This document shows, piece after piece, positions 1 through 58,294 of a stretch of 64,000 nt of DNA. The stretch comes from Candidatus Bathyarchaeota archaeon (GTDB taxonomy: Archaea; Thermoproteota; Bathyarchaeia; Bathyarchaeales; Bathycorpusculaceae), in the NCBI GenBank assembly GCA_963826715.1, contig CAWGYA010000002.1, positions 128,001 to 192,000 of the forward strand, read 5' to 3'. Each line of letters starts with the position of its first letter. Within the stretch, counting starts at the first letter, position 1. The position numbers were made by a program, and so were the translations under genes. The notes under the pieces were generated by a model, which saw nothing but the letters and a program-made list of their open reading frames with translations, ran no database searches and had not been told where the DNA came from.

Positions 1-2711
1 TCAAGCACAGTGAAGAGCAAGCCTGCATACAACGCCGCGACGGCCCAGTCGATTAGTTCTGGAGTGTGGACATCGAAGATTTGCTGTATTCCTGGCGTGT
101 AGAGAACCACGAGTTGCAAGACGAAGGAGACAAGCACTGCTATCCATAGAAACTTGTTTTTGAAGGGTCCGACTTTGGCGATGGGGTACTTGAAAGACCG
201 CGCGGAAATCGCTATTGTCAGCTCCATAACTACCATGGCGGTGAATAGTTGAGTGCGTGCCTCCAAAAGCTGGAAGCTGCTTTCCCAAGGCATATGGGAG
301 AAGAACGCAATCAAGAGCAGCACTGTCATGAAGATGGGTACTGCAGTGAGGTAGACTTTGACGTCGTGTGTGAAGATACTTTCTTTCGGATGGCGGGGTT
401 TGCGTTCCATCAAGTCTGGGTCACCGGGGTCGACTCCTAAAGCAATAGCCGGTAACCCGTCAGTTACTAGGTTAATCCAGAGTATCTGGACCGCTGTTAA
501 GGCAATGGCAGCATCGTTTGCATATGGGTGAAACCCTGGTGATAACCAAGCAGCAAGATAAGGCACCGAGACCACAGCTATGAACATGACTAAGATTTCC
601 ATTATGTTACATTGCAACAGGTAAGTGAGATATTTTTTGATGTTATCGTAGATTTCTCTGCCTTCACGGACTGCTTTGACAATGCTGGCAAAGTTGTCGT
701 CGGCAAGAACCATGTCTGCGGCTTCCTTTGTGACTTCGGTGCCAGAGATGCCCATAGCTATGCCTATATCGCTCATCTTGAGCGCGGGCGCGTCATTGAC
801 GCCGTCTCCGGTCATGGCAACGACTTCGTCTTTCTTTTTCCAGGCTTTGACGATGCGGGATTTGTGTTCAGGCGCCACACGGGCGTAAATCACCACTTTC
901 TCCACCACCGCTTCGAGTTCTTCATCGCTCATCGCTTCAAGTTCTTCGCCTGTAAGCACCTGGTTTTCTTCAACGACTTCGCCGAGTAAGTTGAGTTCTT
1001 TGGCGACGGCGGTGGCGGTTAATTTGTGGTCGCCAGTTATCATGACGACACGGATGCCTGCGTTACGACAGATGCCGATGGCGTCTTTAACCTCACTTCG
1101 GGGTGGGTCAATCATGCTCATGATACCAACAAACACAAAGCCCTCTTCGTTGTCCTCTTTGAATTCGCCTGCGTCTTGAGAAAGCATTTTGTAAGCAAAA
1201 CCGAGGTTGCGTAGCGCCTGCAACGCCATGGCTTCGGTAACTTTATTGTGTTTAACACGAATTTGCTCAGTTAACGGTTGAACTTTGCCAGCAAGAAGAA
1301 TTTGACTGCATTTTTCTAGCACCACTTCAGGTGCACCTTTCATGTAAGCTACTTTTTGGTATCCTGCCATGTGAATTGTGGTCATGCGTTTGCGTTCCGA
1401 AGAAAAGGGCACTTCAGCAATTCGGGGTTCTTGGGCTTCCATCTCTGCTTTTTTGATGCCTGCTTTCTCTGCAGCTACAACAAGTGCGCCTTCAGTTGGG
1501 TCACCCTTCACGATCCACTTGTTCGTCTGCGGATCCTTTTCCAGTCCAGAATCGTTGCAAAGAACCGCAGCCTTTAGGAGTGCTTTGAGGTCTCCTTTTG
1601 GATCTATTTTTTTATCTTCAAATTGGAATTCACCCTCGGGTGCGTAGCCGATACCTGTGACTTTGACGGATTGGTCGTCCACGTAGATGCGTTGCACCGT
1701 CATTTCACCTTTGGTCATGGTGCCTGTTTTGTCGCTGCATATTACGCTGGTGCTGCCCAACGTTTCTACTGCGGGGAGGCGTTTGACGATTGTGTTAACT
1801 TTTGCCATGCGATACATGCCGATGGCGAGTGCACCAGTGATTATGGCTGGGAGTGCTTCGGGGACAGCTGCTACCGCGAGGCTGATTGCCCAAAGAGCCA
1901 TTGCGATGAGATCTCGTCCTTCTACGACAACGCCCACGACACCCACGCTAACGGCGATTATGACGGCTAAGATGCCGATCCATTTGCCTACGCTGCTCAT
2001 GCGGCGTTCAAGTGGAGTTTTCTCCTGTGGGGCAGATTGCACCATTTCGGCGATTTTGCCGAATTCTGTGGTCATGCCCGTGTTGGTTACGATGGCTTTG
2101 CCTCTGCCGTAGACCACGACGGTGCCTGTGAAGACCATGTTTGTGCGGTCGTTTAGTTGGGTCTGCGCTGGCAGGGCTTGGGTACTTTTTGCTACTGGGG
2201 CTGATTCGCCTGTTAAGGATGCCTCATCGGTTTTCATGGTGAAGGCTTCGATGAGGCGGGCGTCAGCGGGAATTTTATCACCGGTCGAGAGAACAACGAT
2301 GTCGCCGGGAACAAGTTGGGTAGCAGGAATTTTGATTTCTTTGCTGTCACGGATAACCTGAGCGGTGGGCGCGGTCATTTTTTTTAGGGCTTCCACTGCT
2401 TTTTCGCTGCGGTACTCCTGTGTGAAACCAAGAACTGCGCTGGCTATGACGATGGCTAAAATAATGAGTGCGTCAGCTACTTCCCCAACTATAATCGAGA
2501 GGGCTATGGCAAAAAGCAAGATTAGCATTAAGACATTGGTGAATTGCCCGATTAGCAGGCGAATTGATGATTTACCTTTTTCTTTTTTAAGTTCGTTGAG
2601 ACCATAGGTGGTTAAGCGCTGCTGGACTTCTTGCGCTGAAAGTCCAATGTCTTCAACTTTGAGTTCAGCCATAACGTCTTTGGTGTCTTCGGTGTGCCAG
2701 ATTTTAGCCAT
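1..2711 (-). CDS. Cation-transporting P-type ATPase (Ca2+/type IIA-like), 3' end runs off the window
   Basis: Not in the ORF track because there is no stop in the window. Manual translation from the ATG at 2711 gives MAKIWHTEDTKDVMAELKV...LTTYGLNEL; phosphorylation motif CSDKTGT near 1720-1740, plus LTGES, KGAPE, MITGD and TGDGVNDAPAL; last codons ELIDWAVAALYAGLLFTVL fit the final TM helix. Confidence 0.95.
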   Translation of the reverse strand, partial: MAKIWHTEDTKDVMAELKVEDIGLSAQEVQQRLTTYGLNELKKEKGKSSIRLLIGQFTNVLMLILLFAIALSIIVGEVADALIILAIVIASAVLGFTQEYRSEKAVEALKKMTAPTAQVIRDSKEIKIPATQLVPGDIVVLSTGDKIPADARLIEAFTMKTDEASLTGESAPVAKSTQALPAQTQLNDRTNMVFTGTVVVYGRGKAIVTNTGMTTEFGKIAEMVQSAPQEKTPLERRMSSVGKWIGILAVIIAVSVGVVGVVVEGRDLIAMALWAISLAVAAVPEALPAIITGALAIGMYRMAKVNTIVKRLPAVETLGSTSVICSDKTGTMTKGEMTVQRIYVDDQSVKVTGIGYAPEGEFQFEDKKIDPKGDLKALLKAAVLCNDSGLEKDPQTNKWIVKGDPTEGALVVAAEKAGIKKAEMEAQEPRIAEVPFSSERKRMTTIHMAGYQKVAYMKGAPEVVLEKCSQILLAGKVQPLTEQIRVKHNKVTEAMALQALRNLGFAYKMLSQDAGEFKEDNEEGFVFVGIMSMIDPPRSEVKDAIGICRNAGIRVVMITGDHKLTATAVAKELNLLGEVVEENQVLTGEELEAMSDEELEAVVEKVVIYARVAPEHKSRIVKAWKKKDEVVAMTGDGVNDAPALKMSDIGIAMGISGTEVTKEAADMVLADDNFASIVKAVREGREIYDNIKKYLTYLLQCNIMEILVMFIAVVSVPYLAAWLSPGFHPYANDAAIALTAVQILWINLVTDGLPAIALGVDPGDPDLMERKPRHPKESIFTHDVKVYLTAVPIFMTVLLLIAFFSHMPWESSFQLLEARTQLFTAMVVMELTIAISARSFKYPIAKVGPFKNKFLWIAVLVSFVLQLVVLYTPGIQQIFDVHTPELIDWAVAALYAGLLFTVL

Positions 2712-2907
2712 TCCCAGTTCCCAAGTATATGGTTTGAGTTTAGGTATTTAGGTATTCACAAATTATGATTTGCTCCTGACAAAACACCAGTTTTAGCCCA
2801 TTAAAATACAAAAATATCTAGCAAATAGGCAATATGCCTAACGAACCCAGGCTAAAGCGGTTGAGAAATGGACTAATGTAGAAGACCAAAAAAACATCTG
2901 AACAACT

Positions 2908-3453
2908 TTAAAAGCCATCAAAAAGCTCAGGATGCCTACCACGGGCACTACGGCTATACATAAACAACGAAAACGCACCCACAATCAACACGCCCCAGCA
3001 AAGCAACTCTAGCAACCAAACAAACGGCAACCCAAAACTGGCAATTTGCTTTTGCCACTCCCAAGCAAAATCAGCAGGCTTGGTCAGCGGCCACGTCCCG
3101 ACAACAAAGTAAAAAAAGCCAAAGGCTGTCAAAACCGTCGCCACCCTCTCGCCAACCCCGAGGTTTGCAGAGTGGAGTTGACGGAGGCTGTAATTGCAGA
3201 GTAAAACCGCGCCTACGAGGAGAGCGGGGAGGCTAGTTAGGAAGAAGAAGGGACTGATGTAGCTTCGTTGAATTATGGCGTTTGGGAAGGGTGGAATTGC
3301 GAAGACATCTTTACCCCAATCCGCAGGTGTCCAGTTACCTGCGATTACGGCGGCAAGGTAGAAGGCGCCGTAAGAGGCCAGTAGCACCCCAAAGGAGGCT
3401 TGGTGGCGCTGCAGGTAGTCTACAACACGCGAGATTGTGGGGGTATGGGTCAT
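2908..3453 (-). CDS. Hypothetical membrane protein (about 4 TM)
   Basis: 181-aa ORF with four hydrophobic segments; no recognised motif. Confidence 0.7.
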   Translation of the reverse strand: MTHTPTISRVVDYLQRHQASFGVLLASYGAFYLAAVIAGNWTPADWGKDVFAIPPFPNAIIQRSYISPFFFLTSLPALLVGAVLLCNYSLRQLHSANLGVGERVATVLTAFGFFYFVVGTWPLTKPADFAWEWQKQIASFGLPFVWLLELLCWGVLIVGAFSLFMYSRSARGRHPELFDGF

Positions 3454-3572
3454 CAGATGTCAGTTCTCTGCTACAGTTATGTGGATTGGGCATATATTTT
3501 TTTCAGCAGTACGTAGGCAAAACATTCTAAAAGCTAACTGTTCACTATACAGGATGTTTTAGGTGTGTGCTT

Positions 3573-4274
3573 ATGAAGTTTGAAACCACCATAACCGACA
3601 TAATCAAGCGGACCGCCTACGTCACCAGCTTCCGCTTTGGCAAACCCGACGATCTCAAATACAAACCAGGCCAGTTCTTTTATATCACCCTCAAACACCA
3701 CGGCGTAGAGCTTAACAAACACTTCAGCTTCAGCAGTAGCCCCACTGAAACAGACCACATCGAATTTACCAAAAAACTCAGCGACAGCCCATTCTCCAAC
3801 GCCCTACGCGCGGCCAAAGTGGGGGATTGGGCACGCATCGATGCGCCTTATGGGCAGTTCACATTTACAGGGGAATACCCTAAGATTGCGTTGCTGGGCG
3901 GTGGCATAGGCGTAACCCCCTTTATCAGCATCGCTAAATACGCCACTGACGGGGCATTGGATAATCAGATTACGCTTTTTTATGGCTGCAACACGCCAGA
4001 AGAGATTGTTTTCCGCGAGGAATTCTGGGCACTAGAGAAGAAAAACAATAACCTAAAAATCCACTTCACCGTCAACCAACCCTCACCGGATTGGAAAGGC
4101 GCCACAGGCAGAATCACCGAGGAGATGATTCGCAAAGAGCTGACTGCCTTTAAGGACTATGTATTCTACGCTTGCGGTCCCCCGCCAATGGTGAAAGCCA
4201 TGCAGAAGTTGGTGCAGAACTTGGGGTTGCCTAAAGAAAAGCTTAAGCTCGAGTATTTCACGGGCTACCAATAG
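3573..4274 (+). CDS. FAD/NAD(P)-binding oxidoreductase (ferredoxin-NADP reductase family)
   Basis: KPGQF, HFSFSSSP, APYGQF, GGGIGVTPF, YACGPPPM motifs; ATG start at 3573 preferred. Confidence 0.9.
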   Translation: MKFETTITDIIKRTAYVTSFRFGKPDDLKYKPGQFFYITLKHHGVELNKHFSFSSSPTETDHIEFTKKLSDSPFSNALRAAKVGDWARIDAPYGQFTFTGEYPKIALLGGGIGVTPFISIAKYATDGALDNQITLFYGCNTPEEIVFREEFWALEKKNNNLKIHFTVNQPSPDWKGATGRITEEMIRKELTAFKDYVFYACGPPPMVKAMQKLVQNLGLPKEKLKLEYFTGYQ

Positions 4275-4447
4275 CTAAAGTCCAAGATCATAAAATCGCT
4301 TGAGTACAACCAGCCAAACCCAAGTAGCAACCTAAAACACATTCCAGCCACAAAACACGTTGTTCATCTAAACTTCTAAGAAGATGAAGTATAAAACAGC
4401 AACTTTCTTCTCATGCTAAACCAAAAACAAACCCTCAAAAAAGAGGT

Positions 4448-5731
4448 TTAAGGGTAGAATCTGCGGGTGGTCCGCGGGAACGGGATCGCATCAATAACAT
4501 TATCCAAATCAAGCATCCAAACCAGCAAACGCTCCAAACCCATGCCGAAGCCCACATGCGGCACCGTGCCGTAGCGTCGTAGGTCAAGGTACCATTCGTA
4601 GTCCTCGGGTTTTAGTCCCTGTGCTTTCATGCGCTCGATTAAAGTGTCTTTGGTTTCTTCCCTTGCGCCACCCGTGCTAATTTCGCCAATGCGTGGAACC
4701 ATCATATCCACTGACATGGCGATTTCGGGGTGTCCGGGGTAGGTTTTGCAGTAGAATGCTTTGATTTCAGTTGGGTAATCGTAGACAAAGAAGGGTTTGC
4801 CAAAGTCCTCTGCGAGCACTTTCTCGTCTTCGTAGCCAAGATCTGCACCCCAGTCGAGTGTGGGGTTTTTGGGTTTTAGGCGCTCGATGGCTTCTTTGTA
4901 GGTGATGCGTGGGAAGGGCGTTTTGACGGCTTTGAGTTTTTCGATGTCTGCACCGAGTTCCTTGAATTCGGCTTGGCAATTCTGAGCTACGATTTGGCAG
5001 ATGTGCTCCATTAAGCCCTCCTCGAACTTCAGGAGGTCAGTCATGTCTGCGAAGGGCCACTCGCCTTCTATGTGCCAGTACTCGGTGAGGTGACGGATTG
5101 TGCGGCTTTTCTCTGCACGGAACGAAGGCGCAATACAGTATACATTCTCCAACGAGAACATGAGGATTTCAAGGTAGAGTTGGCTGCTCTGGGTGAGATA
5201 GAGGTCCTGGTCAAAATAGCGCAGTTTAAAGAGAGTGCTTCCGCCTTCTACCGCCGCGGAGATGAACATGGGCGGGGAAACCTCAGTAAACTTTTGCGTC
5301 TTGAAGTATTCTCGTGCTGCGTCTAGAACTTCGCCGCGAACCTTCATGACAAGGTTCATTTTGCGGCTACGCAGCCAAAGGTGGCGCATATCACGGATGA
5401 ATTCTTCGCTTTTATCTTTGCTGATGGGGAAGTTTTCTGCTAAACCAACGATTTGAAGGTTTTCGCCGCTGATTTCAAAGCCGCCCGGTGCCCGTTTGTC
5501 CTCTTTGGCGGTGCCGCTGAGGGTAAGTGAGGATTCGATTGTGAGTTTTTGGGCTTCGCTCCAGCAGACGCAGGTTTTTTTAATAGTGGATTGGATTACG
5601 CCTGTGGAGTCGCGGACTACGAGGAATATGAGTTCTTTTCCTTCGCGTTTTCGGTAAACCCAACCGCGGACAGTCACGGGTTGGTTTGTGCATTTGCCTT
5701 CTAATATTTCGCTGATTTTAACCAGAGACAT
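4448..5731 (-). CDS. asnS: Asparagine--tRNA ligase
   Basis: OB-fold N-terminus (VRGWV, VVRDSTG), YLTQSSQLYLE, FRAEKSRTIRHLTEYW, LRRYGTVPHVGFGMGLERL. Confidence 0.9.
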   Translation of the reverse strand: MSLVKISEILEGKCTNQPVTVRGWVYRKREGKELIFLVVRDSTGVIQSTIKKTCVCWSEAQKLTIESSLTLSGTAKEDKRAPGGFEISGENLQIVGLAENFPISKDKSEEFIRDMRHLWLRSRKMNLVMKVRGEVLDAAREYFKTQKFTEVSPPMFISAAVEGGSTLFKLRYFDQDLYLTQSSQLYLEILMFSLENVYCIAPSFRAEKSRTIRHLTEYWHIEGEWPFADMTDLLKFEEGLMEHICQIVAQNCQAEFKELGADIEKLKAVKTPFPRITYKEAIERLKPKNPTLDWGADLGYEDEKVLAEDFGKPFFVYDYPTEIKAFYCKTYPGHPEIAMSVDMMVPRIGEISTGGAREETKDTLIERMKAQGLKPEDYEWYLDLRRYGTVPHVGFGMGLERLLVWMLDLDNVIDAIPFPRTTRRFYP

Positions 5732-5768
5732 CGTGCATCAACTTCTGGCAGATATACCAATTTCACGC

Positions 5769-7051
5769 CTAAATGCATATCGGAATGCAGCAGAGGCGGA
5801 GGCGGCACTTTAGTTCTCTTACTTTAGGCTCAGAAACCCGCAGAAAAACAAACAACGAGAGCGGAATCATCGCGGCGGCAAAAAGCAAAAACGGCAACGA
5901 AGGCGACACAAACACGTAAAGAAAGCCCACTAAAAGCTGAAGCCCCCCTGAACAATAAACATGAAAAATTGGGTGCATCCCGTGGCGGTTCCGCGCAGAT
6001 TTCTGGGAACCAAGTCGCTCATTAGAACCAGGTAGCTATTTAGCTGTAGCAAGTTACCTAATCCAAAGAAGAAAAAAGCAAAAAACAACATATTGAAGTC
6101 GGCGTTGACAAAAAGCATCATACCTGGAATAAACAGTAAGTAGCCAAGTATTAGGAAGCGTTTTCTACCAAATCTATCCATGCTTAAGCCTGCGAGTATG
6201 GCGGGTAATGCGATGCTGATATAGCGGAAAGCCACCACCAGCGCCCACTGCTCCAAGGTGACTTCGAGGACTGTTGTGGCGTATACAACAAAGTATATTT
6301 GGCAACTTACCACTAATCCATTGACGACAATGACAGAGATGAAGAGGTTAAAGGCAGATTTGGGAACTTTACGCCACACAAAGATGCCTTCCTTGACCGC
6401 TTGTGGGTACTCACGCAGCATGCTTTGCAGACTGGGTCTATCTACGTCCTCGTTTGGAGGCAAGGTTTCTTTGAGCCTAAACCGAAGTACAGCAATACTA
6501 AAGTACGCAATGGTTGTGAGGCTATAGGCGACGCGCATGCCCAAATCGAAGTTAAAAGTAAACACTAAATACTGGGCGATTAGGGGGGCGGGCAGAAGAA
6601 CCAATGTGGTAATGGCAGATTGGAAACTAAAGCCTGCGGCGCGATTCTTTGGGGGCAACGAATCCATGACCATTGCCATTAAGGCGGGTCCATAGATTGA
6701 GCAAACGTTTTGGATCAGCAGCCCAAGCAATATAAAGGGCCATGAGGGTGCGAAGATGAAAAATAAGCTGCCAATGCCTATGCCAAACGTCATGGAGATT
6801 ATGAGCCAGCGTCTGCCATGTTTGTCGGCGAGGTAGCCGCCGGGGAATTGCACCAGTGCCACGACGATTGAGCCTGCAAAACCCATCACGGAGAGGAGCA
6901 GTTCACTGGCGCCCAAGTGAAGGTAGAAGAGGCTAGCGTAAGTATCGGGGATGGGTTGGGCGGAGAACATGATTATCCAAGTGATGGTTATGAGTAGAAA
7001 GTTTCCTCTAAGTATGGCTTGGTCTCCGCGGAAAAGCGTTGAGAACCGCAT
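5769..7051 (-). pseudogene. MFS transporter, frameshifted near the 3' end (or sequencing error)
   Basis: MFS motif A in both halves (GYLADKHGRR, GLSMDRFGRKR). ORF 5930-7051 stops before the last TM helices, which continue in another frame (LQLLVGFLYVFVSPSLPFLL...VSEPK). The break is at a C6/G6 run, 5943-5948. Confidence 0.8.
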
Positions 7052-38544: not shown

Positions 38545-40551
38545 TTAGTTCAGGCTGATTATTGCTATCTGCGAGAGGTCTGTTAAGCTGTTTAGTTTTA
38601 CCTGCGAGTTCGAAAACGTGTAGAGGACATTGTTGATATAGAGGGAGCGGTTTATCCAGTCGTTTTGGGTGCTGTAGTAATCGTTGAGGTTACTTAGGTG
38701 TCCTTGGCTGTCGAGTAGTGTTTCGTTTAGGTGAGTTATGGTGCCTTTGAGAGTGAAGCCTCCATCTAAACTAACGCTAAACACGTAGGTGCCTTGCCAG
38801 ACTGTGTTGCCGTATGCTGAGTCACCGTATTGCTTGTTTTCCTCGCTTACCAACGCTAAACTCACGGGGATAACCAGTAACCCCTTGCTTTTGTCAAAGA
38901 GAAACGCCTTGGGTTCATAGAGCGATGGTGAGTCGGTTCCGCGGTCTCCGATGACATAGTTTGCGAGTTGTGTAGGATTGTTTACGTTTCCAACATCAAA
39001 GAGGGCCAACTTTAGTCCCTGATACCATGCGAAGTTTTCCTGCGCAGTTGTCTCCACTGCCTCTTTGCCGACACCGATTAAGTGAGTTTGGTCGTAGGGG
39101 TGGAGGTAGTCGGAATAGCCGGGGATTTTAAGTTCGCCAAGCACCGTAGGATTGCTGGGAACGCTAAGGTCAACAACGAAGAGGGGGTCAGTTTGCTTAA
39201 AGGTAACCAAGTAGCCTTTGTCGCCCATAAAGCGGACGGCGTGGAGGTTCTCGTTTTCTGCGAGTCCCTCAAGTTTGCCGGTGACTTGCAAGTTGGGGTT
39301 GAGTATGTAGACGTTGTTGGTTTGGGCTTCTGTGCCGTACCAGTTTGTGGCGATGCGGAAGTAGCCGTTGTATTCGTCCATGGAGTACTGGTTGATTGTG
39401 TTGCCGGGTACGCTGCCCTGTGCTTGGAGGCTGAGGGTTAAACCGTTTATGGAGACGCGATAGATGGAGGTGTAAGTGCCACTGTTCATTTGCCAGTTGG
39501 GGTAGGTGATGTAGATGTTGTCTGATGAGACGTACATCGTGGATGCTCCGCCCATCATAACTGTCATGTTCGTTGGCGTTAGGCTGTCATCGGCAAGGCT
39601 GATACCGTAGAAGCTGGTAAAGCTGTAGCTGGTGTCGCTCATGTCCGCGTAGTATATACTGCTTGGGGAGGCGTCATAAGCGATGTTGCCCTCGTAGACT
39701 GCGGGCAGCGGTACTATGCCATTATAGAACCATGCGTTTTGGCTTACGATAGTGTAGAGGTTGTTGCCTATTAGACGTGAGTTAAAGTATTGACCTGTCA
39801 TGGTGAAATTACGGGTTAACGTGGGGGAAGATTTGTCAGTGACATCGTAGACGTTAACAAATGTGTAGCTGTCACTTTGGTAGAAAGGCATAATTCTGGG
39901 TTCGGATTTTGTGTCGCTCCCTTCAGTGTAGTCACTGAAGTTGATGTAGTTGTATTTGCCTGCGATAACTATCAGCTTGTTTCCGTCTGGGCTGAGGAAT
40001 AACCCTGTAGGATTTGTGTTGTTGCCCAGGTTGATTTTTGATACGACATGGGGGTTTTGAGGGTCTGCGCTTATTATGTCAACTGCGTTGGTGACACCTA
40101 AGCTACTGTAGCCATAATAGTCATAGAAAACAGTCGGTTGGATCGTCGATATTGTGTAGATGTATTGGCCATCGGTTTTTACGGTGTCCGCTTCATCTAC
40201 GCCAGCCACTTGAATGTTGGTTGTGGAATAATCCATCGTATATGATCCACCAGCAGTAAGTGAGTTACTTCCATCTTCCATGATTATGTGTGCAGGAACT
40301 GGCATGTCACCGGTTCCTAAGGATTTGTCCCCAAATGAGTTTCCCCGGGTGACTTGAGAGTTTGTATTTAGGTAGTCGGCAATTTCCTGAACAGACGAGA
40401 AGGTTTTGAGCCCCGACGCCGAAGGCGCCTGTGCCGGAAAAATCATGGGGGCTGCGCCGAACACGTAAACTGTTGATATGAGTACGATTGCGCAAAGCAC
40501 TGCTGCTGTGCCGTAGATTTTGGTTTTTTTGTGGATTTCTTTCTGTACCAT
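38545..40551 (-). CDS. Secreted beta-propeller domain protein
   Basis: N-terminal TM; YSTTNIQVAGVDEADTVKTDG, NQYSMDEY, TDPLFVVDLS, GELKIPGYSDYLHP. Confidence 0.9.
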   Translation of the reverse strand: MVQKEIHKKTKIYGTAAVLCAIVLISTVYVFGAAPMIFPAQAPSASGLKTFSSVQEIADYLNTNSQVTRGNSFGDKSLGTGDMPVPAHIIMEDGSNSLTAGGSYTMDYSTTNIQVAGVDEADTVKTDGQYIYTISTIQPTVFYDYYGYSSLGVTNAVDIISADPQNPHVVSKINLGNNTNPTGLFLSPDGNKLIVIAGKYNYINFSDYTEGSDTKSEPRIMPFYQSDSYTFVNVYDVTDKSSPTLTRNFTMTGQYFNSRLIGNNLYTIVSQNAWFYNGIVPLPAVYEGNIAYDASPSSIYYADMSDTSYSFTSFYGISLADDSLTPTNMTVMMGGASTMYVSSDNIYITYPNWQMNSGTYTSIYRVSINGLTLSLQAQGSVPGNTINQYSMDEYNGYFRIATNWYGTEAQTNNVYILNPNLQVTGKLEGLAENENLHAVRFMGDKGYLVTFKQTDPLFVVDLSVPSNPTVLGELKIPGYSDYLHPYDQTHLIGVGKEAVETTAQENFAWYQGLKLALFDVGNVNNPTQLANYVIGDRGTDSPSLYEPKAFLFDKSKGLLVIPVSLALVSEENKQYGDSAYGNTVWQGTYVFSVSLDGGFTLKGTITHLNETLLDSQGHLSNLNDYYSTQNDWINRSLYINNVLYTFSNSQVKLNSLTDLSQIAIISLN

Positions 40552-40626: not shown

Positions 40627-41073
40627 TTAGAATGGTCTCATGCCCCAAATGCGGTAAGCTTCATACCAAAAAATGCTGCAGACTATAGCGCCAAAGAGGA
40701 TGATGAAGACGTTGTCACGTGTGAAACTGTGAACCATCAACCCCAAATAGAGGGCATAAAACATCGTAGAGAATAGGGCGTAGAAGAAGTACCGTGGAAA
40801 CAGTAACTTTCCTAATTTGACATAGTGCCGAAGTACGCCGATTTTAACTTCGCCAACTAGCACATAATGCCCCCCGATATCTTGTTTCTCAACCAATCCT
40901 AATTCACGTAGTTGCTCAAGATGGTGGAAAGCAATGCTTGGACTGCTGAAATGAAGGGCTCGTTGGACTTCGCGAACACCTGCGGGGGCACCGTTTTTTA
41001 AAAGATACCAATATACTTTCCAAGCCTTACCGCGTAGAGCATATTCGAGTTCAGTTTCAGTGTTCCGGTTCAA
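40627..41073 (-). CDS. Winged-helix DNA-binding protein with two C-terminal TM helices
   Basis: GVREVQRALHFSSPSIAFHHLEQLRELGLVEK; two hydrophobic helices at the C-terminus. Confidence 0.85.
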   Translation of the reverse strand: MNRNTETELEYALRGKAWKVYWYLLKNGAPAGVREVQRALHFSSPSIAFHHLEQLRELGLVEKQDIGGHYVLVGEVKIGVLRHYVKLGKLLFPRYFFYALFSTMFYALYLGLMVHSFTRDNVFIILFGAIVCSIFWYEAYRIWGMRPF

Positions 41074-43967: not shown

Positions 43968-44612
43968 TTAGGTTTTGGTTTTTGAATTGCCTGGCATCCC
44001 TGGAGGTAGGTCTGGGAAGTTAGCACTAACACGTTGTTCTGCAATTGTTGCTGCTTCTGAAAGAATTTTTGATGCATCTTCGTTTACATTGTCGAAGTTA
44101 AGTGACATACCGCTTGTAGTACCTGCTTCAAACATCATGCCGCTTAGCATGTTTCCAATATCGCCAAGTTCACCCTCTGCCTCTGGCATAACTCCACCCA
44201 ATCCGCTGCTAACGCTGCGTAAAACACCTATACATGGTCCCAGCATAGCACAGACATCTCCGAGTTCAGAAACAGTTCGTATTCTAAGTGAAACCTGATC
44301 CAGGGCTAGTCGTGCGTTCATTATCAGTCGACTCATTTTTCGGAGTTCAGCAAGTTCAGTAGCGTAGATGTTCGCGTGCGCTTGGTCGTGCTCTGTGTAA
44401 GCTTTGACAAGTTTGGCGAAGAGTTCTTTATCTTTTTGTGTAAAACGTTCGTTTGATTGATCAAGTTTGTTGATTTGCAGATCAAGTTGTCTAACTGCAA
44501 AATCTAAGCGTGGTTTAAGTGGTGCAGGCGATTGAATTGTATTTTTTAAGGCGCCCAGCATTGATTCGCCTTGTTTTGGGGCTTCCCATTTTTTAGCAAA
44601 ACGTTCAGACAT
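43968..44612 (-). CDS. ESCRT-III / Snf7 family protein (CdvB-like)
   Basis: Helical Snf7 pattern (ANIYATELAELRK, ARLALDQVSLRIRTVSELGD, EDASKILSEA); MIM2-like FPDLP at the C-terminus; ATG 44612 follows GAGG. Confidence 0.9.
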   Translation of the reverse strand: MSERFAKKWEAPKQGESMLGALKNTIQSPAPLKPRLDFAVRQLDLQINKLDQSNERFTQKDKELFAKLVKAYTEHDQAHANIYATELAELRKMSRLIMNARLALDQVSLRIRTVSELGDVCAMLGPCIGVLRSVSSGLGGVMPEAEGELGDIGNMLSGMMFEAGTTSGMSLNFDNVNEDASKILSEAATIAEQRVSANFPDLPPGMPGNSKTKT

Positions 44613-44722
44613 GTTAACATCCTCTTGAGAAGCGATACGTTGGCTGAGGCTTTTAATTGTTGCTAACATGCAGATATATACATAAAAATTTCAAAACCAA
44701 AAATTGACTTACACCCTCAACG

Positions 44723-45589
44723 TTAAAGGATTCCTCCGACTATGAAAGCAATTAAAGCAATCATCATCCCATATTTCCAAACACGACGTGCTTTCTTAGG
44801 GCTTTTAAAAAGCAGCGGTAACGAACTCAAGAAAACCGCATCAGCCACAAGAACTACTACAAAATAGCCTAAACCTAACAACTGCAATGGCCAATACGCA
44901 ATAATGCTTAAGACAACGGCTATCAGCAACAACACCAATGCAATGGCATTAGCGTTTTTGACACCGATTATTTTTGGCAGACTCTTCTGATTTGAATCTC
45001 CCCGAATATCCTCGACATCTTTTACAACTTCACGTGCAGTTATCGACAGGAATGCCGCTGCGGACATAAACAAAACAGGACCAATGTTGCCGACAATTAC
45101 TCCACCGTAGATAAACGCTAAAACCGCCTGAAGCCCTATGAAAATATTTCCAAAAACCTTGACTTTCTTCTTAAGGGTCAAATCATAAATTAACTCCAAT
45201 AGCAAAGCTGCCAAAACCACAATGAATGAGAGATAGCCAACCAACAAAGCCGCCATCAACCCCAAAACCAATGAAACGGCAAAAAGTAATCCTGAATAAA
45301 CCAAAGCGCCTTGAGAGCTTATTCTACCAGAAGGAATTGGACGCTCGGGATGATTAATTTGGTCTGTTTCGCTATCGAAGTAGTCATTTAATGTGTTGCT
45401 AGCACTAGTAAAGAGGAATCCAACGGCGAACGCTAGAACAGCAGAAAACCAAAAATCTGTTATGCCATTTCCTGAAGCGACGAAGATTGCAGCGAAAATC
45501 GCGACTGCACCTAGCATAGAGGTGAATGGTCGACCTAAAGAAAACAATGCATGCGCTTTAGCGACTGGGTTGTTTTTATTAGAACTCAT
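44723..45589 (-). CDS. UbiA family prenyltransferase, DGGGP synthase-like
   Basis: NTLNDYFDSETDQINHPERPIPSG and REVVKDVEDIRGD Asp-rich motifs; about 8 TM. Confidence 0.9.
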   Translation of the reverse strand: MSSNKNNPVAKAHALFSLGRPFTSMLGAVAIFAAIFVASGNGITDFWFSAVLAFAVGFLFTSASNTLNDYFDSETDQINHPERPIPSGRISSQGALVYSGLLFAVSLVLGLMAALLVGYLSFIVVLAALLLELIYDLTLKKKVKVFGNIFIGLQAVLAFIYGGVIVGNIGPVLFMSAAAFLSITAREVVKDVEDIRGDSNQKSLPKIIGVKNANAIALVLLLIAVVLSIIAYWPLQLLGLGYFVVVLVADAVFLSSLPLLFKSPKKARRVWKYGMMIALIAFIVGGIL

Positions 45590-46556
45590 AGGTTTCGGGT
45601 CCAGACGTACCTGCAATCACGGCTCTCTTGGATTTTAGAGGATACTTGGATCCCTCTATGAGTTGGTTTTTCTTGAATAGTTGTCTGTGAACAAAATAGA
45701 GGTCTTCTTCACGTTGTTTCCTAATTTGCTCTTTTTCGCCTGTTCCATAGCATTTAAGGTACTGTGTGCCAGAATTCAATGCCTTTGACCTCACTGCAAG
45801 TGCGATAAGAGTTAGCAACTGTTGATTTGACCATGTGGTTCCTGCGGAGCCCTGTTGGATATACATTAAGCTACTGAAATCAGAGCGGCAAGGCGGCAGC
45901 ATCATACCAGTGGGAAACTGAAATTTTGTGTGCCTAACAGTTACATCTATGTTGGGTAATTCACTGAAAATTTTAGGGTGCTTAATTGCCCAATCCAAGG
46001 AATAATTGATGAGAAAAACAGCGCAGAAAGATGTATTTTGCTCTGTTTTCTTTTCCAACTCTTTAAGCTGTTTTGCAAAGTTTCCTATGTGACCCGATGG
46101 CTCAAGGCTCTCCCCTAAATCACCTAAAAAGCGGAGTCTTATTTTGTATTGGTCTGCGTATTTTTCATAGATGGGAAAGAGATTTTTGAGACCAAAAAAG
46201 ATATCAGCATAATTTTCTCGATTTTTATGCTTCTCTTCGATGACGTTGATATAGCAGGCTGGCATGCCCAAGACCCGAAGCATATGTATTATTCTTAGGC
46301 AAAAAATGCCACCATCGAAGTAGGCATCTTGACCCTTCTGAGCTGTGGAGGTACGCATGCCATCAGTCATTTCATAGATGACTGTGCGGAATGTTTCGTC
46401 GTTAACGTTATTTAAGTCAAGAGAACTGCAGAGTTCACGAAAACTGCTTTTGATTGTTTTCTCGGACGGCAAATCGAATTCAGGTTGCAATAGATTCCCT
46501 CTTGAGATGCTAGTAAGGGATAATATGCGCTTAAATATAATACTTGCTTTGAACAT
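45579..46556 (-). CDS. Divergent cis-prenyltransferase-fold protein (Rv3378c-like)
   Basis: VIYEMTDGMRT (cf. IMDGNRR), IRLRFLGDL, LEKKTEQNTSF..FLINYS, PNIDVTVRHT (cf. PDLLIRTS). Confidence 0.65.
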   Translation of the reverse strand: MFKASIIFKRILSLTSISRGNLLQPEFDLPSEKTIKSSFRELCSSLDLNNVNDETFRTVIYEMTDGMRTSTAQKGQDAYFDGGIFCLRIIHMLRVLGMPACYINVIEEKHKNRENYADIFFGLKNLFPIYEKYADQYKIRLRFLGDLGESLEPSGHIGNFAKQLKELEKKTEQNTSFCAVFLINYSLDWAIKHPKIFSELPNIDVTVRHTKFQFPTGMMLPPCRSDFSSLMYIQQGSAGTTWSNQQLLTLIALAVRSKALNSGTQYLKCYGTGEKEQIRKQREEDLYFVHRQLFKKNQLIEGSKYPLKSKRAVIAGTSGPETYEF

Positions 46557-46693
46557 GGCCTTGTTAGCCGCTGATACAATTCAAAAGAACATTTCTCAAA
46601 AAATAAAACTGCTAACGTAACAGATTTAGAGCACGCCTACTAGACAGCAAATGATTTTTATTAACTATTAAATGTTAATTAAGCGAGAGCAAA

Positions 46694-47116
46694 ATGACAA
46701 GCAAACCCATTCCAAATTCATCAAAACTGAAAAAACAAAAAGCAGTTCGGGCTCTATTGATGGTTTCAGGAACAATCGCACTTATACTGGGCGCCATCGG
46801 AATTTTTCTGCCCATCCTGCCTACGACGCCTTTTTTGCTGCTTGCCGCCGCTTGCTATTTAAGAAGTTCAGAGCGCATGCACAAGTGGCTTCTTAGAAAC
46901 CGTTGGTTTGGGGAATACATAAAAAATTATCAGGCTGGTCGAGGGATTCCAATGAAAAGCAAGATTATAGCTTTGACTACGCTCTGGCTTGCGATACTTT
47001 ACTCGACATTTTTTGTGATCGATGAGGTTTTTATTGCTCAAATTGTGCTCTTGATTATCGCGGCTGGAGTTAGCGTTCATTTGATTAGGTTGCCAACTTT
47101 TAGGAAGAAAATATAG
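46694..47116 (+). CDS. YbaN (DUF454) family membrane protein
   Basis: GIFLPILPTTPFLLLAAACYLRSSER. Confidence 0.95.
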   Translation: MTSKPIPNSSKLKKQKAVRALLMVSGTIALILGAIGIFLPILPTTPFLLLAAACYLRSSERMHKWLLRNRWFGEYIKNYQAGRGIPMKSKIIALTTLWLAILYSTFFVIDEVFIAQIVLLIIAAGVSVHLIRLPTFRKKI

Positions 47117-47193
47117 AAAACTCTTTTGTTACACAAAAAGACCTATGAGAAACATTAAAAGCATTAGCACACAACCTATCAACACATTAAAAG

Positions 47194-48504
47194 TTGTTGG
47201 TGAAATGCTTGAGTGATAATTACGCTCCTCTCGTTGGCGACAATTATGCTCCAGATAAAATCCGAGTTATCATTCCTGTCGGTGGAAAAGCCACGCGACT
47301 TCTACCGTTAACAGCGGAAACCAGCAAAGCCTGCCTTCGTCTGCTTAACAGACCTCTGGTAGAATTTTCACTTCTTTCTCTAGCAAACCAAGGGATACGT
47401 AACTTTATTTTTGGGGTTAAAGGCTACACAAACTATCGAGACCTCTATGATTATTTTGAGTCAGGATACGGATTCTCAGCACGCTACAACATTAAACCAC
47501 GTATTCATATCAAGTATCAACCCAACTTCCCTGATTTAGGCAGCGCAGATTCCGCACGTATAAACATGGAATACTACGAAGTTAATAACCCAGTTCTTGC
47601 GGTTCAGGGCGACAACATATTCGACTTAAAAATCAAAAATTTATTAGACTTCCATAAAGAAAAATGCGCCTGTTTAACAATCGTGCTACGTGAAGTAGAT
47701 AACGTAGAGGGGTTAGGCATAGCAGATATCGATAAGAGTAACCGCATTCAACGTTTCGTTGAAAAACCCCTCCCTGAGGATGCCCCCAGCAACCTGGCCA
47801 ATACGGGGTTGTATGTTGTTTCACCTGAAGTGAAAAAGATTTTCAAGGAAAAAGGTGTGCAACAGATCATTAAAGAGAAAAAGAGATTAGATTTTGGATA
47901 TGACTTCATCCCCTACGTCATTGAGACGGGACGCCCTGTGTATGGTTATACACTTAAAGGTAGCTGGTTTGATGTGGGGACACCTAAGAGTTATTTGGAA
48001 GCTATGAAAAACCTGCTACATGGTGGCTTCTCAACCCTAGACGATTTCGGTGGCAGGTTAAGTGGCGATAGCCTGATTTGGGTACAAGGTGACAGCAATG
48101 ATTCTGAGAAACGGCGGCAAGAGATTATCTGCAAGATTAAACAAAAAAAAATAGAGATAGAGGGTGCGGTATTAATTGGTCGTCACTGCGAGATTGAGGA
48201 TGGCGCGCGCATCGCAAACAGCTGTATTGACAATTTCACGCGGATAGGGAAAAATGCTGTCATCAGTAACTCGGCAATCATGGATCGGGTAATCGTGGAC
48301 GAGAATGCGGAGGTACATGACAGCATCATTGGGCGACATGTTACTGTGAAGTCCAGCAGCCATAAACCGACTAAAATCTCGGCTGTAAGCGTTATAGCAG
48401 ACGATGTAACGCTTGAAGAAGGCTGCTCACTCGTGGCCTCAAAAGTATATCCACATCAGCGCATTCAAGGCGATTTTCAAAACCAAACAATAATTGCAAA
48501 CTAA
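47194..48504 (+). CDS. NDP-sugar pyrophosphorylase (nucleotidyltransferase with left-handed beta-helix)
   Basis: GGKATRLLPLT, FVEKP, ANTGLY, WFDVGTP, hexapeptide-like repeats. Confidence 0.9.
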   Translation: MLVKCLSDNYAPLVGDNYAPDKIRVIIPVGGKATRLLPLTAETSKACLRLLNRPLVEFSLLSLANQGIRNFIFGVKGYTNYRDLYDYFESGYGFSARYNIKPRIHIKYQPNFPDLGSADSARINMEYYEVNNPVLAVQGDNIFDLKIKNLLDFHKEKCACLTIVLREVDNVEGLGIADIDKSNRIQRFVEKPLPEDAPSNLANTGLYVVSPEVKKIFKEKGVQQIIKEKKRLDFGYDFIPYVIETGRPVYGYTLKGSWFDVGTPKSYLEAMKNLLHGGFSTLDDFGGRLSGDSLIWVQGDSNDSEKRRQEIICKIKQKKIEIEGAVLIGRHCEIEDGARIANSCIDNFTRIGKNAVISNSAIMDRVIVDENAEVHDSIIGRHVTVKSSSHKPTKISAVSVIADDVTLEEGCSLVASKVYPHQRIQGDFQNQTIIAN

Positions 48505-49055
48505 GCCTTAAACCACTTGAACATCATATACTGAATTTTCTTTGTCTTCAAATCAGGCACCGCGATTATAAACCGCTTGCGCACAGTCGTTGCTAACCGC
48601 CCGTTCTTCACTATTTCCGTGGCGGAGATGTCGCTACCTGCTCTTTTGACGGTAACCATATAGGGAGCATGCTCCATACCGGGACCGTACTTGTAGACAG
48701 CAAAATCACAGCCGAATTTTATGCCCGGTGTAACAATCAACCCGCTATCACGCAGGTTATGGTAAACCAAATATTTCTCTTCAAATTCATCATAGAGTTG
48801 CATGGCTTTATGCCTTAACTCTTTGAGGCTAACTTTAGCATCGTTAGATGTTTTGCATATTTCGATTTTATCTATTTCGGCTAAGTAAAGCCCTTCCATC
48901 AGATCTAACACCAGCGGCACATCAAACTCGGGTATTTTGGGTTTTGGAATACCGACAGGTTTACCGTAGTATGCGTTTTTGTAAAGTTCAGAGCCTTCAC
49001 TGGAGTTCCAAACAATGAGAAAGTTTTCGATAAGTTCAACTTTAATTTTAACCAT
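48501..49055 (-). CDS. endA: tRNA-intron endonuclease, catalytic subunit
   Basis: GIKFGCDFAVY, GPGMEHAPY, RLATTVRK (Y/H/K triad); YGKPVGIPKPK loop like crenarchaeal (alpha-beta)2 enzymes. Confidence 0.92.
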   Translation of the reverse strand: MVKIKVELIENFLIVWNSSEGSELYKNAYYGKPVGIPKPKIPEFDVPLVLDLMEGLYLAEIDKIEICKTSNDAKVSLKELRHKAMQLYDEFEEKYLVYHNLRDSGLIVTPGIKFGCDFAVYKYGPGMEHAPYMVTVKRAGSDISATEIVKNGRLATTVRKRFIIAVPDLKTKKIQYMMFKWFKA

Positions 49056-58048: not shown

Positions 58049-58294
58049 TCATTGGGCGAGTAGATCAGTTTGGTATGATCGCCACGTTGGCATCGTGGAG
58101 GTCGCGGGTTCAAATCCCGCCTCGTCCACCAAACTTTTATTCATGTTTATGCCTTGCAGGCGTTTTATAGCCAATTTCAAGGCGTTTTCACAGATTTTAG
58201 ACGGATTTAAACCGATTTCACAAGCTAAATTTGCCAATTCAGGATTTAATTCAATTATTGTGTTTATTTCTGCAACCCTTTTTCTAACCTCCAC
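58049..58294 (-). CDS. CcdA/ribbon-helix-helix-like small ORF reading antisense into the tRNA; possible int(N) fragment
   Basis: IELNPELANLACEIGLNPSKICENALKLAIKRL, then no stop before entering the tRNA antisense. Confidence 0.5.
   Translation of the reverse strand: MEVRKRVAEINTIIELNPELANLACEIGLNPSKICENALKLAIKRLQGINMNKSLVDEAGFEPATSTMPTWRSYQTDLLAQ
58054..58131 (+). tRNA. tRNA-Ala(GGC), intron-less, CCA encoded
   Basis: Acceptor GGGCGAG/CTCGTCC with G3-U70; anticodon arm CCACG-TTGGCAT-CGTGG; T arm GCGGG-TTCAAAT-CCCGC; ends ACCA. Confidence 0.97.

Follow-up and report, generated by a model that had tools for sequence, protein, structure and literature searches.

A UbiA-linked, far-diverged cis-prenyltransferase-superfamily protein as a candidate replacement for geranylgeranylglyceryl phosphate synthase in some archaea

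In archaea, membrane-lipid synthesis has its first committed step in the reaction of geranylgeranylglyceryl phosphate (GGGP) synthase (GGGPS). This enzyme is regarded as a near-universal archaeal hallmark and is used as a marker both in work on the 'lipid divide' and in surveys that assess the lipid potential of uncultured archaea. A second geranylgeranyl group is added by digeranylgeranylglyceryl phosphate synthase (DGGGPS), a member of the UbiA superfamily. Among proteins with the cis-prenyltransferase (cis-PT) fold, those of the type of Rv3378c (tuberculosinyl adenosine transferase) hand a terpenyl group to water or to an acceptor that is not an isoprenoid, and MM_0014 of Methanosarcina mazei (PDB 7caq) acts on small alcohols as prenyl acceptors and yields farnesyl-sn-glycerol (Okada et al., 2021, PMC8131916). 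The authors of that study state that O-prenylation had not been known for any cPT-family enzyme, and they regard the O-prenylation of alcohols by MM_0014 as unphysiological; M. mazei has normal GGGPS and DGGGPS genes. Where the accessible part of a 2026 cis-PT review refers to MM_0014, it does so only as an enzyme that forms chains. Here we describe a gene pair in a 64,000-nucleotide stretch of DNA (the window; positions 128,001 to 192,000 of contig CAWGYA010000002.1, assembly GCA_963826715.1) from Candidatus Bathyarchaeota archaeon. The pair encodes a protein of the cis-PT superfamily, which we call NEW, and a UbiA prenyltransferase. We consider it probable (about 60%) that the two genes form a mobile cassette that replaces both GGGPS and DGGGPS, with NEW acting as an analogous GGGP synthase that presumably has the cis-PT fold.

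NEW (45579-46490, minus strand) is predicted to be a 303-aa soluble protein with zero transmembrane-like segments. The open reading frame (ORF) extends over 45579-46556 on the minus strand and would give 325 aa if begun at the ATG at 46556. However, translation probably starts at the TTG at 46490, leaving 22 residues at the N-terminal end of the 325-aa ORF untranslated, because the database copy of the protein (P0001, 100% identical) has 303 aa and homologues begin near residue 23-27 of the 325-aa numbering in A1, a narrow alignment of 36 NEW sequences. The second gene, termed cassette UbiA (44723-45589, minus strand), encodes a 288-aa polytopic prenyltransferase that resembles DGGGPS and belongs to a clade of its own, found only beside NEW; its ORF (44723-45616, minus strand) would give 297 aa from a TTG, and the internal ATG at 45589 gives 288 aa. 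The genes overlap by 11 nucleotides (45579-45589, minus strand; ATGAGTTCTAA), such that the stop codon of NEW overlaps the start of UbiA. On the minus strand the junction reads ...cct ATG agt tcT AAt..., in which the TAA of NEW occupies 45581-45579 and the UbiA ATG (45589-45587) sits within the Tyr-Glu codons of NEW's conserved C-terminal YEF (...PETYEF). This arrangement suggests that translation of the two genes is coupled.

Both members of the pair are, by their substitution patterns, genuine genes under strong purifying selection. Relative to the nearest relative, the ratio of nonsynonymous to synonymous substitution rates (dN/dS) is 0.067 for NEW and 0.055 for UbiA, with dS near saturation, and a second NEW pair gives 0.051. 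Furthermore, the linkage is not due to chance, because cassette UbiA lies directly 3′ of NEW in all ten Bathyarchaeia loci of the family-f1 type that have a readable downstream flank. NEW is found without this linkage at one Hecatella locus, five Aenigmatarchaeota loci and nine Thermoplasmatota loci. The stretch of the window is present in four DNA runs of one soil-metagenome study, with no RNA run among those listed.

A word search of 5.8 billion proteins returned 59 homologues of NEW at E ≤ 0.001, every one annotated as 'hypothetical', and 46 representatives were found at the same threshold among 1.84 billion proteins, 21 of them below 1e-30. When NEW was scanned against NCBIfam, the uppS model TIGR00055 scored 12.7 bits (E 0.061), short of its cut-off of 109.55, and a single-sequence phmmer search of solved-structure sequences gave no match. 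Comparison of family profiles was more revealing. With hhalign, A1 aligned to 28 archaeal undecaprenyl diphosphate synthases (UPPS) over 161 colinear columns with E 6.2e-5 (probability 64.6%), while all 82 family sequences gave E 1.3e-8 (95.6%) and the distant subfamily alone gave E 7.3e-8 (94.6%). Controls comprising the reversed UPPS alignment, five column shuffles and a GGGPS alignment remained at a probability of 1.8% or less and E ≥ 0.027.

A wide alignment of the NEW family (A2) was likewise used as a profile against 177,635 distinct solved-structure sequences. The top 21 of the 30 matches at E ≤ 10 are all cis-PTs, comprising UPPS, lavandulyl-type synthases, MM_0014 and plant cis-PTs. 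The best is UPPS 3ugs (E 1.9e-5), and others include 3wyi (3e-4), cyclolavandulyl diphosphate synthase (5.3e-4), E. coli UPPS 1jp3 (9.6e-4) and MM_0014 (0.0055). This search supersedes one made with the narrow A1 profile, in which UPPS appeared only at E 0.63-0.75. Moreover, PF01255 is the sole recurring Pfam family among members of the NEW family, matched by 10 of 27 at E ≤ 0.1 with a best value of 7.4e-7. Judged from these profiles, NEW is a far-diverged protein of the cis-PT superfamily. No such relationship connects NEW to GGGPS: there was no Pfam match to PF01884, hhalign gave a probability of 0.1-0.6%, and a second comparison gave E 0.49.

Two other resemblances surfaced in these searches. 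At NEW residues ~256-287 (NSGTQYLKCYGTGEKEQIRKQREEDL), the A1 profile matches eukaryotic ribosomal protein L7/uL30 in its N-terminal helix (E 0.0058), and PF08079 is matched by 2 of 27 family members; the likeliest cause is the similar composition of a charged helix. In an ESM Atlas feature search with NEW, the top clusters consist of unnamed archaeal proteins, and the cluster at rank 9 (score 0.79) has PF01255 in 13% of its members, which we take as a lead only.

The alignment of A1 with UPPS reveals which parts of the cis-PT active site have been kept. It pairs DGMRT with DGNRR, YINVIEEKH..R with YAFSTENF.R, VRLxFLGD with VRVKxIGR, INYSLDW with IAYGGR, and VRHTK with IRTSGE. The residues D65-G66-x-R68 (325-aa numbering), aligned to DGNRR, are invariant in both A1 and A2; within this loop the Asn has become Met and the second Arg has become Thr, and the Mg2+-binding Asp position is kept. 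In place of FSxEN, NEW has VIEEKH..R opposite FSTENF.R, with Val105 at the Ser position, and the Asn falls opposite position 108, where family members have E, A, D, Q or S. RTSGExRxS is represented by RHTKFQFPTG, of which only the first Arg (R208) is kept, the second Arg and the Ser being replaced. The C-terminus carries a strictly conserved KRAxxAGxxGPExYEF in place of the RXG motif. Residues that are invariant or nearly so include the Asp-Gly-x-Arg loop, R208 and K211 (RHTK), H110, R113, N115, K310-R311 and G319; in total, 40 columns are invariant in A1 and ten across the wide family.

Acceptor binding and condensation with isopentenyl or dimethylallyl diphosphate are served by the FSxEN Ser and Asn together with the Ser and second Arg of RTSGExRxS, a motif that binds the diphosphate of isopentenyl diphosphate. 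The loss of the FSxEN Ser and Asn and of the second Arg of RTSGExR in NEW thus argues against condensation with isopentenyl diphosphate. Retention of the site for an allylic diphosphate and Mg2+, together with a remodelled acceptor site, would fit an acceptor that is a phosphate monoester. These same replacements make it highly improbable that NEW is a cis-PT that forms carbon-carbon bonds, whether short-chain or head-to-middle, and feeds an unusual prenyl diphosphate to UbiA. Such an enzyme would agree with the remote homology to UPPS and to cyclolavandulyl and isosesquilavandulyl diphosphate synthases, but the Asn position is not even conserved within the family, and the missing GGGPS described below would be left unexplained.

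A preliminary description of this locus had reported the 11-nucleotide overlap between the 325-aa ORF and the UbiA start, quoted a series of motifs from NEW (YEMTDGMRTST, KIRLRFLGDL, LEKKTEQNT...INYSLDW and NIDVTVRHTK), and proposed a cis-PT homologue that lacks the elongation motifs and is coupled to a DGGGPS-like UbiA. The junction sequence bears out the overlap, and every quoted motif occurs in the translation. The homology holds in the hhalign comparisons, the structure-profile search and the PF01255 matches, and the coupling recurs at all of the readable loci counted above.

To place the gene pair in its metabolic setting, we considered the lipid-pathway genes of the genome in which it resides (G000; G, C and L numbers are our handles for genomes, contigs and loci), an assembly of 2.64 Mb in 8 contigs that is 96% complete. 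A canonical uppS (264 bits) is encoded separately in this genome, its product carrying DGNRRWA and, at the C-terminus, RXG (RRYGS), and NEW is thus not the genome's sole polyprenyl-diphosphate synthase. A uppS of the same type is present in 31 of 31 sampled genomes of the phylum, nearly all of them without NEW. These data bear on the idea that NEW is a non-catalytic accessory subunit, similar to Nus1/NgBR, that activates or anchors UPPS or UbiA, with UbiA alone performing both prenyl transfers. Catalytically altered cis-PT homologues do act as accessory subunits in heteromeric cis-PTs, archaea included (PMC8131916), NEW lacks several catalytic motifs, and the gene overlap suggests synthesis of the two proteins at a 1:1 ratio. 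Nevertheless we judge this very unlikely: the genome's own UPPS keeps the DGNRRWA and RXG typical of homodimers and occurs in genus-mates that have no NEW, NEW retains the Asp-Gly-x-Arg loop and many invariant polar residues, and four Aenigmatarchaeota carriers tested have NEW and no UbiA.

Other components of the ether-lipid pathway are in place in the genome. We found sn-glycerol-1-phosphate dehydrogenase (G1PDH; NF002022, 468.4 bits against a curated cut-off of 413), two PF00348 prenyl-diphosphate synthases of the geranylgeranyl diphosphate (GGPP) type, CarS (152.1 bits) and three UbiA genes. In contrast, the two enzymes that should follow G1PDH in the standard route, a separate GGGPS and a DGGGPS of the classic clade, were both sought and neither was found. 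There is no match to PF01884, the GGGPS family; a hidden Markov model of seven Bathyarchaeia GGGPS sequences, run with filters off on six-frame ORFs of the genome, gave a best E of 2, and tblastn gave a best E of 0.11. In the genus-mate G193, GGGPS sits between an 87-aa gene and a 1027-aa gene. Orthologues of both (92% and 85% identity) occur in our genome in the same order. GGGPS has been cleanly deleted at this syntenic locus, and its absence is not an assembly gap, because the flanking orthologues adjoin one another across only 127 bp of N-free sequence.

The cassette UbiA is a clear member of the UbiA family (PF01040, 121.3 bits; cut-off 34.2). Its best NCBIfam model is the DGGGPS model NF009521 at 209.2 bits, below the cut-off of 296, and cassette UbiAs as a group score 197-212 bits on it, models of the DGGGPS type being their best. 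The classic UbiAs of genus-mates are likewise best on DGGGPS-type models and below the cut-offs. However, in 12 genus-mates the UbiA most similar to that of the window reaches only 32-39% identity, and a tree of 33 UbiA sequences resolves three clades. The 'classic' clade (8 rows, support 100/99) contains only genus-mates that carry GGGPS, the 'cassette' clade (8 rows, support 94/96) contains only proteins encoded beside NEW, and a third clade occurs in carrier and non-carrier genomes alike. When a classic UbiA was used as the query, all six NEW carriers tested returned only the cassette UbiA (32-37% identity), whereas four non-carriers returned proteins of 58-82% identity; by this measure all six carriers lack the classic clade. 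The NEW tree and the cassette UbiA tree are congruent.

The third-clade UbiA of our genome (G000:C8:938670-939341; L003:1348-2250), with orthologues in G157, G217, G358, G349 and G193, scores on models resembling DGGGPS (NF009523, 164 bits) and follows an NAD-dependent epimerase/dehydratase gene with a 4-nucleotide overlap. It may be a prenyl-phosphate sugar-related transferase.

The position of the cassette in the chromosome provides additional evidence for an exchange of enzymes. We used EndA as a single-copy anchor, which was found in 8 of 8 genomes (73-85% identity). In the GGGPS-carrying genus-mates G349, G358 and G193, the gene order is CdvB, classic UbiA, DUF454 (in some), nucleotidyltransferase, EndA, a PhoU-like gene and an aminoacyl-tRNA synthetase gene, and in G353, which also carries GGGPS, the classic UbiA lies ~2 kb from EndA. 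The carriers G000, G157 and G217 have the same flanks (72-92% protein identity), and the slot holds cassette UbiA and NEW; the classic and cassette UbiAs that occupy it are ~36% identical. By blastn against the GGGPS-carrying genus-mates, similarity ends at 44688 and resumes at 46730-47144, whereas it is continuous in the carrier G157. Together with the gene order, this delimits an approximate swapped segment at 44689-46729 (no strand assigned).

On the left of the swapped segment lies a CdvB1/B2-like ESCRT-III gene (43968-44669, minus strand; NF041005, 175.9 bits, below the cut-off of 350) that is 78-85% identical in G349 and G157 and holds the same position there. On the right follow a DUF454 membrane protein gene (46694-47116, plus strand; PF04304, 138 bits), which is 74-75% identical in G358, G193 and G157 and has no counterpart at this position in G349, and a gene for a sugar-1-phosphate nucleotidyltransferase with a hexapeptide-repeat C-terminal part (47194-48504, plus strand; PF00483, 136.7 bits), 78-88% identical in all five compared loci. 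The tRNA-splicing endonuclease gene endA (48501-49055, minus strand; PF01974 and PF02778) comes next. In the termite-gut carrier G127, the cassette and the EndA locus lie on different contigs, and no UbiA is present at the latter; moreover, the NEW proteins of G000 and G157 group in the tree with genus g6, apart from the Bathycorpusculum carriers of their own genus. These two observations suggest more than one acquisition of the cassette.

Several features near these loci were recorded as well. The classic DGGGPS of G193 (L112:6657-7518; G193:C6:213716-214454) is split into two frames covering residues 1-115 and 129-287, and the nucleotidyltransferase beside it is also split; these splits could be frameshifts or sequencing errors in the assembly. 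Elsewhere in the window, a 668-aa secreted-looking protein is encoded at 38545-40551 (minus strand; Beta_propel, PF09826, 494 bits), upstream of a small winged-helix regulator (40627-41073), and the G349 orthologues of the two are 58% and 84% identical. Positions 1-6000 have a GC content of 0.48-0.50, compared with 0.34-0.47 elsewhere in the window. An Rfam and tRNA scan of the window found no rRNA, its sole match being a tRNA-Ala(GGC) at 58054-58131.

If the cassette substitutes for GGGPS, the two should seldom occur in the same genome. Among 101 genomes of the genus, NEW is present in five and PF01884 in 92, with no genome containing the two together. PF01884 is missing from nine genomes, namely the five NEW carriers and four others that are 65, 68, 80 and 91% complete. 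The last of these, G394, encodes classic DGGGPS twice, at C14:10165-11001 (65% identity to the query) and at C139:523-1356 (64%), has an in-frame TAA in one copy, and is probably a fragmented or mixed bin.

A wider survey of 301 genomes of the class found PF01884 in 271, including 145 of the 152 of high quality. Strong matches to NEW occurred in G000, G127, G157, G217, G064 and G297, and a seventh match of 18.3 bits was treated as noise. No PF01884 was found in G000, G127, G157 or G217, and the partial match in G064 (22.9 bits) is a His_biosynth protein (251.6 bits) beside HisG. All five high-quality carriers in the class survey consequently lack a real GGGPS. Among further carriers on GenBank contigs, PF01884 over the cut-off was absent from five more Bathyarchaeia and from four of five Aenigmatarchaeota, so that 14 of all 17 distinct carrier genomes examined are without such a match. 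A search for more distant relatives of NEW in ten genomes that lack PF01884 found none.

The absence of GGGPS and of a classic DGGGPS, the location of the pair in the classic DGGGPS locus and its exclusivity with GGGPS are the reasons why NEW and cassette UbiA are most likely the core ether-lipid machinery of this organism. We infer the substrates and product of NEW, and the catalytic roles of its conserved residues, from this combination of remote homology, motif loss, linkage, clean deletion, in-place swap and exclusivity. Specifically, NEW would be a soluble enzyme of cis-PT descent, probably dimeric like its relatives, that binds geranylgeranyl diphosphate via the retained Asp-Gly-x-Arg loop and Mg2+. 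It would move the prenyl group onto a hydroxyl of sn-glycerol-1-phosphate with no condensation of isopentenyl diphosphate, and the product would be GGGP, which is normally made by the TIM-barrel GGGPS. The coupled UbiA would add the second geranylgeranyl group, as in the DGGGPS step, and CarS and the later enzymes would proceed as usual. During evolution, the cassette would have overwritten the classic DGGGPS gene, and GGGPS would have been lost afterwards.

In this proposal UbiA was exchanged along with NEW, which a simple like-for-like replacement does not explain. One alternative is that the cassette replaces the core pathway with different chemistry, prenylating the other hydroxyl first or using another chain length or another phosphorylated polyol. 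Only a co-adapted partner would then accept the intermediate, hence the joint swap of both genes. In keeping with this possibility, the loss of GGGPS and classic UbiA and the gain of NEW and cassette UbiA go together in six of six carriers tested, the trees of the two cassette proteins are congruent, and where cassette UbiA is absent NEW is paired with a protein of the class-I isoprenoid-synthase fold (see below). However, the joint swap can also be explained by physical linkage on one transferred fragment or by contact between the proteins, and cassette UbiA scores best on an ordinary DGGGPS model (NF009521, at the 197-212 bits given above). We regard a different intermediate as unlikely.

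A further alternative emerges from what is known of Rv3378c. The preliminary description labelled NEW 'Rv3378c-like' and envisaged a soluble prenyl transferase and a UbiA acting together in a side pathway to an unusual lipid or prenylated metabolite. The two genes are tightly coupled, but the side pathway fits poorly with a genome in which a separate GGGPS and a classic-clade DGGGPS are missing, and the label finds no support, since no entry with an Rv3378c or tuberculosinol name is among the 30 solved-structure matches of the A2 profile at E ≤ 10, nor did one appear in the single-sequence or A1 searches. In its general form, this alternative holds that NEW is a terpenoid hydrolase or transferase resembling Rv3378c or kolavelool synthase, or another O- or N-prenyltransferase, that makes a secondary metabolite with UbiA, and that the loss of GGGPS is unrelated and covered by another enzyme or by lipid uptake. 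NEW does have cis-PT ancestry without elongation motifs, hydrolysis or transfer of prenyl groups is known for other cis-PT homologues (PMC8131916), and the Thermoplasmatota subfamily discussed below coexists with GGGPS, showing that some members of the branch do otherwise. Yet a secondary-metabolite role leaves unexplained the strict exclusivity with GGGPS in the 101-genome genus, the presence of the cassette in the slot of the now-missing classic DGGGPS, and a G1PDH-like neighbour in Aenigmatarchaeota. Moreover, lipid scavenging is out of keeping with a 2.6-Mb genome in which G1PDH, GGPP-type synthases and CarS are all retained. In view of these difficulties, we find a secondary-metabolite role quite unlikely.

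Relatives of NEW in other archaea offer an independent view of its genomic associations. At the Hecatella locus and at all five Aenigmatarchaeota loci, no UbiA lies beside NEW, which instead adjoins a conserved protein of 340-351 aa (L030:6957-7973, plus strand, in Hecatella; L032:6936-7991, minus strand, and L031, L033, L034 and L035 in Aenigmatarchaeota). The proteins of the two phyla are 33% identical (E 7e-64) and contain two acidic motifs ~150 residues apart. No Pfam or NCBIfam model matches them, they are absent from our genome, a word-based search yields only two homologues, and profile comparisons do not relate their family to UbiA, NEW or UPPS. The ESM Atlas model of this partner (predicted template modelling score, pTM, 0.82) matches a polyprenyl-synthetase cluster with template modelling (TM) scores of 0.71/0.76 over 280 residues, which points to a class-I isoprenoid-synthase fold. 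On the strength of this model, the partner may be a second novel prenyl-transfer enzyme. The four UbiAs of Hecatella are at most 30% identical to the classic and cassette clades over longer alignments and could be assigned to neither.

In Aenigmatarchaeota, a G1PDH-like gene (NF002022, 173 bits, below the cut-off) lies two genes from NEW (L032:8033-9187, minus strand, and also in L031 and L034). Three of the five loci contain it in full, and part of it is present at the cut end of a fourth, L035. A PF00348 synthase is present in five of five carriers.

In the Thermoplasmatota, a sister subfamily of NEW is 25-31% identical and sits on a very long branch. Its members (L038-L046, on Thermoplasmatota/Methanomassiliicoccales contigs) are ~360-aa ORFs with the motifs ILDGHRS ... 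RFTKG. Their neighbours include DUF835, seven-transmembrane (7TM) and FAD-type oxidoreductase proteins, the DUF835 and 7TM proteins adjoining the NEW-like gene in one locus; most of the surrounding ORFs have no Pfam match and give no functional hint, and GGGPS is not near these loci. The function of this subfamily is probably different from that of NEW. A link to butanetriol tetraether lipids, suggested by the occurrence of family members in both Bathyarchaeia and Methanomassiliicoccales, was considered and rejected, the Thermoplasmatota members belonging to this other subfamily.

A number of observations weigh against the proposal that NEW and cassette UbiA replace GGGPS and DGGGPS. With regard to fold, NEW itself matches no Pfam family at E ≤ 0.1 and thus falls outside the curated membership of PF01255, its own A1 profile reaches no higher than the 64.6% noted above, and A2 compared with the genome's single UPPS sequence gives E 0.0029 and a probability of 10.8%; the fold is predicted from sequence profiles. 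With regard to distribution, the carrier G297 has both NEW and PF01884 (220.6 bits), in a bin that is 66% complete and in 330 contigs, the Aenigmatarchaeon carrier G312 has a PF01884 match of 90.5 bits, and the carrier G307 has a partial one of 20.5 bits that was flagged as over the cut-off. Three high-quality Bathyarchaeia have neither PF01884 nor NEW, which fits incompleteness and yet shows that absence calls are noisy. Among 81 genomes of the Aenigmatarchaeota order sampled, NEW occurs in seven and PF01884 in five with no overlap, but this exclusivity is uninformative because chance alone would give an expected overlap of only 0.43. Since related genomes are not independent, the whole pattern rests on perhaps ~4-5 separate events.

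The distant relatives add further difficulties. The Thermoplasmatota subfamily coexists with GGGPS in six of six genomes tested, so the whole branch to which NEW belongs is not tied to GGGPS loss. No UbiA was found in four of four Aenigmatarchaeota carriers tested and no CarS in any of five, and a full canonical lipid pathway is not evident in these organisms, which have an odd partial set.

Taken together with the pairing in Aenigmatarchaeota, the data allow a bolder formulation, in which archaea possess a second, evolutionarily independent route to the diether core. A protein of the cis-PT fold would form the first ether bond and a co-adapted partner the second, with the genes carried as a cassette that passes between lineages and is able to replace the canonical genes in situ. 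The partner would be the separate UbiA clade in Bathyarchaeia and the class-I-fold protein beside the G1PDH-like gene in UbiA-less Aenigmatarchaeota. The regiochemistry of the intermediate may differ from that of GGGP, which would explain the joint loss of both canonical enzymes. We offer this only tentatively, as possible and on balance doubtful.

The narrower proposal, that NEW is an analogous GGGP synthase, would combine a known reaction with a known fold superfamily in a new way, through a new gene family in a new mobile arrangement. In some archaea of soil and gut, the two standard enzymes that build the ether-lipid core seem to have given way to a unit of two genes. If so, genomes scored as lacking GGGPS, such as those of some Bathyarchaeia (termite-gut Bathycorpusculum included) and some DPANN, do not necessarily belong to lipid auxotrophs. 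It would also follow that a horizontally acquired analogue can displace an essential core step even within one genus, and that the cis-PT fold gains a physiological role in O-prenylation, seen earlier only as a side reaction of MM_0014. In the open full-text literature, subscription journals and supplements lying outside it, we found nothing that ties a cis-PT-like protein to GGGP synthesis and no note of Bathyarchaeia without GGGPS; by title and abstract, none of the papers found there on Bathycorpusculum is about lipids.

Comparison with the known systems helps to define what is distinctive about the cassette. NEW would perform the same reaction as GGGPS (PcrB, PF01884) at the same pathway position, preceding a UbiA of the DGGGPS type, but the two have no sequence relationship, and the presumed alpha/beta fold of NEW differs from the TIM barrel. 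If the proposed function is right, NEW is an analogue of GGGPS and not a homologue. Cassette UbiA, in turn, shares with DGGGPS its PF01040 membership, its best-scoring models and the classic DGGGPS genomic slot, and differs in forming a separate clade that in family-f1 Bathyarchaeia is always in an operon with NEW. Like members of the UPPS/cis-PT family (PF01255; 3ugs, 1jp3), NEW is predicted to be soluble and has a colinear DG-x-R loop, VRLxFLGD strand, NY..W and R-x-T/S; unlike them, it is linked to UbiA, exclusive with GGGPS and encoded in a genome with a separate, ordinary uppS.

The proteins that transfer prenyl groups to other acceptors provide the remaining comparisons. Rv3378c resembles the proposed NEW in being a non-elongating protein of the cis-PT fold that passes a prenyl group to another acceptor. 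However, no specific similarity between the two was found in the searches of solved structures, and the context of NEW consists of core lipid genes rather than a diterpene cyclase. MM_0014 is, like NEW with its predicted fold, an archaeal cis-PT-fold protein without RXG (PMC8131916), and it is matched by the NEW-family profile; it differs in being a regular PF01255 member that still elongates chains, NEW being far more divergent. MM_0014 supplies the chemical precedent for the O-prenylation proposed for NEW, and the genomic pattern of NEW suggests that in its case this reaction is the main job.

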